A stretch of DNA of 26,445 nucleotides, taken from the UHGV virus genome UHGV-0139945; one strand, 5' to 3'. This stretch comes from a virus. Both the position numbers and the translations under genes were made by a program. Numbering within the stretch: the first letter of the stretch is position 1; every line of letters begins with the position of its first letter. Below the pieces are notes generated by a model. The model saw only the letters and a list, made by a program, of their open reading frames with translations, was not told the DNA's origin and did no database searches. Positions 4,094-4,113 of this stretch are shown piece after piece.

Positions 4094-4113
4094 CCGCGAG
4101 TCCGCCGCCCCGT
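4094..4113 (-). other. cosN-like cohesive-end site
   Basis: Minus strand reads ACGGGGCGGCGGACTCGCGGAAAACGGCTA; the 12-mer GGGCGGCGGACT (complement of 4099-4110) matches the lambda cohesive end GGGCGGCGACCT (recalled) at about 10 of 12 positions and lies at the expected distance upstream of the Nu1-like gene. Confidence 0.45.

Follow-up and report, generated by a model that had tools for sequence, protein, structure and literature searches.

The locus lies in the UHGV virus genome UHGV-0139945, of which the whole stretch of 26,445 nucleotides (here called the window) was analyzed. Read leftward along the minus strand, the genes encode Ant (an anti-repressor), an O-like replication protein, three DNA methyltransferases, an HNH protein, and a Q antiterminator, then a methyltransferase, a holin, a GH108 endolysin, a holin-like protein, a spanin lipoprotein, an 80-aa open reading frame (ORF), a BamE-like protein, and a 61-aa ORF; the cos site discussed here comes next, followed by terS, terL, a head-tail adaptor gene, and a portal gene that is cut by the window edge (Table 1). 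This is the gene order of a lambdoid prophage, so the right end of virion DNA cut at cos would carry the small ORFs together with the lysis cassette. The original prediction had placed the 61-aa ORF, a lipoprotein, and the lysis genes at that end, and the gene order agrees if the DNA is cut here; the 153-aa ORF that it labeled a lipoprotein does hold a lipoprotein signal, MKKLLFAALIGVSALTITAC. The lipoboxes of the right-end lipoproteins read LTITAC and LIASC. The BamE-like lipoprotein most likely starts at Met29, at about 4935 (MKKLLF...ITAC), with the start in the ORF list probably lying too far upstream.

The minus-strand segment that separates the lysis cassette from the replication genes (7071-13304) is occupied by a 353-aa HNH protein and methyltransferases. 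In all, four DNA methyltransferase-like genes were seen, encoding 350, 656, and 300 aa within this segment and 293 aa at the far end, a methylase load that is unusually heavy for a lambdoid phage. Past the integrase gene, the plus strand encodes a 595-aa AAA_15/AAA_21 ATPase with AbiEii/OLD-like ATPase domains (23642-25429) and the 293-aa D12-class adenine methyltransferase (25509-26390), which may form a moron or anti-phage defence cassette where the prophage ends.

Table 1. Features of the cos region and neighboring genes (window positions)
Feature	Position	Strand	Basis or remark
cosQ GGGTCCT	4133..4139	minus	Putative packaging-termination signal by lambda likeness; 22 bp upstream of nick
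ACG, left flank of cosN	4111..4113	minus	Contains CG beside predicted nick; lambda alignment
cosN cohesive-end 12-mer GGGCGGCGGACT	4110..4099	minus	10/12 identity with lambda
CGCGG, right flank of cosN	4098..4094	minus	Same in lambda, LLS, yong2, cdtI, Cr-LKS3
AAAACGG, right of CGCGG	4093..4087	minus	Just beyond 4094-4113, the range of the original prediction
Imperfect inverted repeat AAAACGGCTAGTTTTC (GAAAAC-GGCTA-GTTTTC)	4078..4093	minus	Directly right of cosN
Candidate R3-like TerS site GTCATCATCATCATG	4053..4067 (bp 44-58)	minus	Direct (CAT)n-type repeats
Weak IHF-like site AATCAATAACCTG	4036..4048	plus	One mismatch to WATCAANNNNTTR; between R3-like and R2-like elements
Candidate R2-like element TCAATGATGTCG	4007..4018 (bp 93-104)	minus	Inverted CATCAT/GACATC
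Candidate R1-like element GTTCACCATCATGG	3978..3991 (bp 120-133)	minus	Overlaps terS start codon
Terminase small subunit TerS, 163 aa	3490..3981	minus	Pfam DUF1441 (PF07278), phrog_141
Terminase large subunit TerL, 702 aa	1382..3490	minus	gpA family: GpA_ATPase and GpA_nuclease
Head-tail adaptor	1170-1385	minus	
Predicted right-end gene block	4305..6929	minus	Gene order, family matches
61-aa ORF	4305-4490	minus	
BamE-like lipoprotein, 153-aa ORF	4558-5019	minus	Signal MKKLLFAALIGVSALTITAC
80-aa ORF	5043-5285	minus	
Spanin lipoprotein	5282-5620	minus	
Holin-like protein	5690-6034	minus	
GH108 endolysin	6031-6573	minus	
Holin	6576-6929	minus	
cI-like repressor	16401-17027	plus	
Integrase	22472-23638	plus	

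A lambda-like cosQ-cosN core upstream of terS

In minus-strand order the site comprises AATCATTATCATTTAAT, GGGTCCT, CCCGGTGGGTGGGCCTACC, ACG, GGGCGGCGGACT, CGCGG, and AAAACGGCTAGTTTTC, and positions 4113..4087 read ACG, GGGCGGCGGACT, CGCGG, AAAACGG. The 12-mer and the two words that follow it (4110..4087) are thus exactly as originally read, and the lambda end used there for comparison, GGGCGGCGACCT and then CGCGGGTTTTCG, agrees with J02459. The spacing to the small-terminase gene, fairly put at about 110 nt, is 117 nt to the ATG at 3981 and 105 nt to the GTG at 3993. The ATG at 3981 is the start used by homologues (terS of phage LLS is annotated at bp 130) and is most likely the start of terS, the GTG of the ORF list probably being too far upstream. 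Throughout, bp 1 is the first G of the overhang, such that window position equals 4111 minus bp; this numbering reproduces the published statement on N15 from the N15 record.

As evidence, the bare 12-mer was rejected: allowing up to two mismatches to lambda, it matched once in the window when 1.87 matches were expected, and 84 of 100 shuffles reached at least one match, so that this count is no better than chance and is what a chance resemblance in a headful (pac) phage would draw upon. An extended pattern was composed of 25 specified bases, all from lambda's own end junction, namely, cosQ GGGTCCT, a spacer, ACG, GGGCGGCG..CT, and CGCGG (written out, GGGTCCT, N18-22, ACGGGGCGGCG, two unspecified bases, and CTCGCGG). 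This pattern, GGGTCCT-N18-22-ACGGGGCGGCGNNCTCGCGG, has a single match in the window, at 4094-4139 on the minus strand, with 0.00 expected. The cos observation is real once the lambda-derived context is counted together with the 12-mer. By homology, the predicted nicks fall between 4111 and 4110 on the minus strand and between 4099 and 4098 on the plus strand, which would leave 12-nt 5' overhangs. The overhang has partial two-fold symmetry, with 7 of 11 mirrored pairs in the window versus 5 of 11 in lambda.

Directly right of cosN, the AAAACGGCTAGTTTTC repeat is constant in all four classes of TerS/cosB described below and is also present in cdtI, Cr-LKS3, and phi458. This constancy suggests that it is probably part of the core recognized by TerL and lies outside cosB. 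A hairpin or dyad over cosQ and the spacer (GGTCCTCCC-GGT-GGGTGGGCC) was considered and rejected as a C-run followed by a G-run; among 49 distinct spacers, a covariation test of this dyad gave 0.148 versus 0.149 for shuffled sequences (293 of 500 shuffles at least as high).

Two further palindromes lie on the cosQ side. One is a perfect 14-bp palindrome, TTTAGACGTCTAAA, at 4198-4211, between the 61-aa ORF and cosQ; a related sequence, GACGTTTAGACGTC, occupies the same place in mEp043 (L002). The other, TGATAATCATTATCA, is conserved upstream of cosQ in lambda and in the window family; it lies at 4147-4165 (minus strand) in the window, 8 bp from cosQ, at about 48,44x-48,46x in lambda, and also in L002, L010, L016, and others. 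It resembles GATAATGATAATCATTATC, the 19-bp Fur-box consensus. Matches to that consensus with at most four mismatches were found in 47 of 95 distinct upstream regions, which are related by descent and hence not independent counts, versus 0 of 2,000 random 60-nt pieces of the window. Lambda has three mismatches, mEp043 has two, and the window copy has five (manual count). No connection between a Fur box and cos was found in the literature searched.

The adjacent genes encode a diverged lambda-type terminase

TerL matches Pfam families PF05876 and PF20454 (E values of 2e-71 and 2e-83) and lambda gpA by BLASTP (24% identity; E value of 4e-17). TerS is called a terminase small subunit by PHROGs, and Pfam assigns it to DUF1441, not to Phage_Nu1 (PF07471); BLASTP of TerS against lambda Nu1 gave no match. 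A profile-profile comparison of 13 DUF1441 sequences with 7 sequences of the Nu1 family gave 94.9% probability and an E value of 4e-8 over 139 collinear columns, which span the helix-turn-helix, the wing (G...LY), the central helices, and the C-terminal region. From this profile match, TerS is a remote Nu1 homologue outside the Pfam Phage_Nu1 family, and, because it is paired with a gpA-family TerL, the window terminase is by homology a diverged lambda-type terminase. Searches of PDB sequences with TerS (phmmer and profile) returned no meaningful match, a single-sequence AlphaFold model of TerS was unusable (mean pLDDT of 52.7), and NCBIfam gave nothing informative for TerS, TerL, the lipoprotein, or the 61-aa ORF.

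These assignments also bear on chance resemblance in a headful phage. TerL is of the gpA family and not of the headful type, a complete cosQ-cosN is present, the 25-base pattern has zero expected matches, and about 100 relatives keep the site at a constant distance from terS. Chance resemblance is therefore extremely improbable, and headful packaging is effectively refuted by the gpA-family TerL together with the complete cosQ-cosN.

Genome ends and distribution of the site among relatives

The nearest named phages, with approximately 80% identity over terS-terL, are Eeyore, mEp043, mEp213, Flotzy, Kp4865-4, and LLS. The record of LLS, the closest named relative, opens precisely at the homologous first G, where a "5' extended single-strand cohesive site," GGGCGGCGCGCT, is annotated; this end was inferred from the TerL type and from Feiss's analysis of mEp213, and the ends around cos were missing from Nanopore reads of LLS virion DNA (PMC12315714). 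The record of Hafnia phage yong2 ends with a 12-mer in the register of the window and restarts at CGCGGGAAACGGCTAG (CGCGG), and that of cdtI starts at the homologous first G (GGGCGGGAGCGT|CGCGGAAAAAGGCTAG). For the cyanophage Cr-LKS3, cohesive ends with 9-nt 5' extensions, GGGCTCGCG, have been reported (PMC9303873), and its record reads GGGCTCGCG and then CGCGGAAGTCGGCAGTTTTTC (CGCGG). Phages phi458 and Fels-1, an Stx2 phage, and Pasteurella phage Pmp14 have the cos architecture of the window.

A true cos homologue could be cut with a geometry unlike that of lambda, with an overhang shorter or longer than 12 nt or with shifted nicks. Such a geometry could be argued from the 9-nt overhang of Cr-LKS3, which has the same terminase type, and from the 24% identity of TerL to gpA, which makes identical nick chemistry an extrapolation. 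It could also be argued from the Stx2a-converting phage Stx2_14040 (L134), where, about 190 nt upstream of terS, 10 nt (GGGCGGGCGG) separate ACG from CGCGG; from this spacing, the cohesive ends of these Stx phages may be 10 nt long, or their nicks may be shifted. The window, however, keeps 12 bp between the ACG and CGCGG flanks, like lambda, N15, LLS, cdtI, and yong2, and in the shorter cases it is the flank spacing itself that shrinks, which suggests that the nicks follow the flanks. We consider a departure from the lambda geometry in the window to be unlikely.

The exact 20-mer ACGGGGCGGCGGACTCGCGG was found in 94 IMG/VR contigs and at 10 loci in enterobacterial genomes (Klebsiella spallanzanii, Phytobacter, Kosakonia, and Rahnella), with the full cos context at every locus whose flanks were long enough to judge. 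Matches in Streptomyces, Halorubrum, Nocardia, Kocuria, Citricoccus, and a Rickettsiales MAG have no cos context around them and were set aside as chance occurrences of a GC-rich word. Over 6.6 kb, one metagenomic viral contig shares 99.8% identity with the window; identity to a K. spallanzanii prophage is 93.6%. The exact overhang GGGCGGCGGACT was not found in any deposited phage, nor was the exact 12-mer found in the literature searched; this particular variant appears to be undescribed in the searchable literature.

The recurrence of the site bears on whether the window could carry a homologous cos in a defective, non-packaging prophage, with no virion ends to speak of. The window is internal to a prophage-like gene order that includes an integrase, it spans only part of the element, its head genes are limited to the adaptor and the truncated portal, and tail genes are not visible within it. 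Against this, the ORFs of TerS, TerL, the adaptor, Q, the repressor, the integrase, the replication gene, and the lysis cassette are all unbroken and match their families strongly. The identity of the cos core among many independent contigs speaks for continued selection. A defective element thus has only a small probability, similar to that given to an altered cut geometry.

A second natural form of cosQ, AGGTACT in place of GGGTCCT and at the same distance from cosN, was seen in many prophages of Rahnella and others (L009, L014-L019, L025, L028-L030, L047, and others) and in Fels-1 (L135) and Pmp14 (L136). TerL is more divergent in the AGGTACT class, with a median identity to the window TerL of 72% versus 96% in the GGGTCCT class. 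Natural variation of cosQ was not apparent in earlier work (Feiss et al. 2015, PMC4669245).

Candidate TerS recognition elements in cosB

No match to the lambda R consensus was found in the candidate cosB of the window. CATCAT-type words are concentrated there, with 5 of the 29 matches in the window falling within 3980-4065 (86 bp). The elements were compared in 11 phages whose TerS recognition helix reads G(V/L/M/A)HRQT, namely, the window, LLS, Eeyore, yong2, two metagenomic relatives, the Stx2 phage, Fels-1, phi458, Pmp14, and, analyzed in the same way, mEp043-type sequences. Direct (CAT)n-type repeats are present at bp 45-58 in all 11; 10 of them, Pmp14 being the exception, also have a second, inverted copy at bp 94-99 and a third, direct one at bp 120-127. 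These distances from the nick are fixed while the start of terS ranges from bp 110 to 200. In published work, R3 lies at bp 50-65 in lambda and at bp 48-60 in N15, lambda R2 is inverted, and lambda terminase cuts 47 ± 2 bp from its R site (PMC9026076).

In phi458, a CATCAC/CACCAC variant is accompanied by an inverted GGTG-type copy. Where the helix reads NRN(L/M)VARRL (class D), GCAGCAG at bp 48 replaces the CAT repeats; locus L102 has further copies at bp 97 (inverted) and bp 115, and L113 has the first copy only. The R2-like motif thus changes along with the R3-like element in both phi458 and L102. From position and covariation, we propose the CATCAT elements as candidate R sites for TerS binding. 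A scan with the IHF consensus gave 37 matches in the window versus 25 expected, which is not significant, and an IHF site called from the consensus alone was rejected; the match at 4036-4048 is placed like lambda I1.

The R2-like and R1-like elements (AUGAUGUCGAA ... UUCACCAUCAU; 3978-4018, minus strand) are mutually inverted, and pairing in the mRNA is possible. The resulting RNA hairpin would bury the terS AUG (3981-3979) and could serve, instead or in addition, to control translation. That the elements keep their distance from cosN even in relatives with a far-off terS start argues that a role as DNA sites is primary.

The same cosN overhang and flanks were found joined to at least four cosB/TerS N-terminal modules (L029, L015, L102, and L113 compared with window positions 3978-4098), in which the terS start is at bp 130, 131, 196, or 197. 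Each of the four TerS types belongs to DUF1441; the C-terminal half is common to them, and the N-terminal DNA-binding end differs. At the sequence level, the shared and variable halves of TerS parallel the constant cosQ-cosN core and the variable cosB. We tentatively propose, at a little short of even chances, that a core read by TerL (cosQ, the GGGCGGCGGACT cosN, and AAAACGGCTAGTTTTC) has been joined to at least four cosB/TerS modules, of which that of the window would read (CAT)n in the lambda-like order R3-R2(inverted)-R1 and a sister module would read GCAGCAG. If so, DUF1441 terminases would form a family of packaging specificities with mutually annealable ends, in which hybrid concatemers would be allowed and specificity could be switched by the swap of a single module.

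Discussion

Positions 4094-4139 on the minus strand very probably represent the cosQ-cosN core of a lambda-type cos in a lambdoid temperate phage or prophage whose host is a Klebsiella-like enterobacterium. This reading follows from the single match to the extended lambda-derived pattern where none is expected; from differences confined to bp 9 and 10, with bp 1-6, the CG flanks, and cosQ intact; from the gpA domains and gpA homology of TerL and the profile match of TerS to the Nu1 family; from the LLS, cdtI, and yong2 records that open in register and the reported 5' cohesive ends of Cr-LKS3; from the recurrence of the 20-mer site and cos architecture across about 100 related sequences; and from CATCAT-type elements that keep fixed distances from the nick and are swapped where the TerS helix differs. 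The claim that this is a cos-type phage is accordingly supported by cohesive-end identity, the CG flanks, cosQ, the gpA-family TerL, and the register of the relatives' records. The original prediction had also held that the site fixes the virion ends; this stands as a strong prediction by homology for UHGV-0139945 and not as a demonstration, since we infer the ends.

A mechanism can be outlined by analogy with lambda (PMC4669245, PMC9026076). TerS would bind cosB, probably at the CATCAT-type sites at bp 44-58, 93-104 (inverted), and 120-133, and would anchor the gpA-family TerL, and the strands would be nicked 12 bp apart, on either side of GGGCGGCGGACT between ACG and CGCGG. The product would be virion DNA with 12-nt 5' overhangs and with 5'-GGGCGGCGGACT at the left, terminase-gene end. 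Starting at cosB, packaging would pass the head genes and the tail genes, come round to the lysis genes, and end on meeting cosQ (GGGTCCT) and the next cosN. The scheme is built on observed homology of sequence, on protein families and gene order, and on the conservation of the site in about 100 related sequences; from the analogy we infer the nick positions, the polarity and length of the overhangs, the TerS-cosB contacts, and any role for IHF.

The analysis provides well-founded predicted virion ends and an orientation for this phage and approximately 100 close relatives in Klebsiella-group bacteria, which can be used for annotation, for opening genome records at the correct position, and for cos-based packaging vectors. 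The DUF1441 family of "unknown function" is placed as a Nu1-like family that supplies the small terminase to a large branch of lambda-type cos phages, and candidate DNA recognition elements are nominated for these terminases. The understanding of cos packaging is unchanged, as such sites are well known; the added value is modest and lies in the remote homology of DUF1441 to Nu1, the candidate R sites, and the use of one cosN core by several TerS/cosB modules.

Comparison with described cos sites

Phage-inducible islands offer a cos of another kind. In PICI cos, an rpp gene follows cosQ-cosN in place of terS/terL, and structural genes are missing (PMC9026076); a PICI cos was rejected because the window cos leads into terS, terL, a head-tail adaptor, and a portal fragment.

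The cyanophage Cr-LKS3 has a DUF1441-type TerS (33% identity) and a gpA-type TerL, and its end begins with GGGC and continues with CGCGGAAGTCGGCAGTTTTTC, for which the window counterpart is CGCGGAAAACGGCTAGTTTTC; it differs in its 9-nt overhang, its cosQ-like GGGTCCC, and its very distant host. In phages mEp213, mEp043, and LLS, TerS is 85% identical to that of the window, the cosB layout is shared with terS starting at bp 130, and cosQ, spacing, and flanks are as in the window. Their ends (GGGCGGCGCGCT) are likewise putative; bp 9-10 of the overhang are CG in LLS, whereas they are GA in the window. These three phages have E. coli hosts, whereas the nearest genome match of the window is in Klebsiella spallanzanii, and the remaining genome is mosaic.

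N15, whose cos reads GGGCGGCGTCCG, has a naturally occurring lambda-like variant of cosN; its departures from lambda, at bp 9 and 12, are confined to the right half. N15 shares with the window a short distance from cos to terS (terS at bp 89), but it has a TerS of the Nu1 family and a single R3, whereas in the window TerS belongs to DUF1441 and the elements apparently number three.

An alignment with lambda itself bears out the resemblance originally claimed: cosQ GGGTCCT, the ACG flank, bp 1-8 and 11-12 of the cohesive end, and the CGCGG flank are common to both, such that the left half, GGGCGG, is the same, with ACG before it, CGCGG after the overhang, and cosQ intact. The partial two-fold symmetry, the AATCATTATCA element upstream of cosQ, the position of cos upstream of terS-terL, the gpA-family TerL, and the order of domains in TerS, which is that of Nu1, are further likenesses. 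The differences are bp 9 and 10, which are GA in the window and AC in lambda, with no other change in the overhang; a cosQ-to-nick distance of 22 bp versus 23 bp; a cosB of 117 bp versus about 178 bp, with no match to the lambda R consensus; a DUF1441 TerS with no BLASTP similarity to Nu1; and a 702-aa TerL that is only 24% identical to gpA. In natural lambda-like cosN sites, bp 7-12 vary and tolerate mutation (N15 varies at bp 9 and 12, and Gifsy-1 varies at bp 8, 9, and 11), whereas bp 1-6, the CG pairs at both nicks, which are highly conserved, and cosQ, which acts in packaging termination, are under selection (Feiss et al. 2015, PMC4669245). Both differences between the window and lambda overhangs fall in the tolerated right half, in agreement with what the Feiss group describes for such sites at the sequence level. 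The window overhang thus fits the known right-half variation, and the site is an ordinary lambda-type cos, correctly identified.
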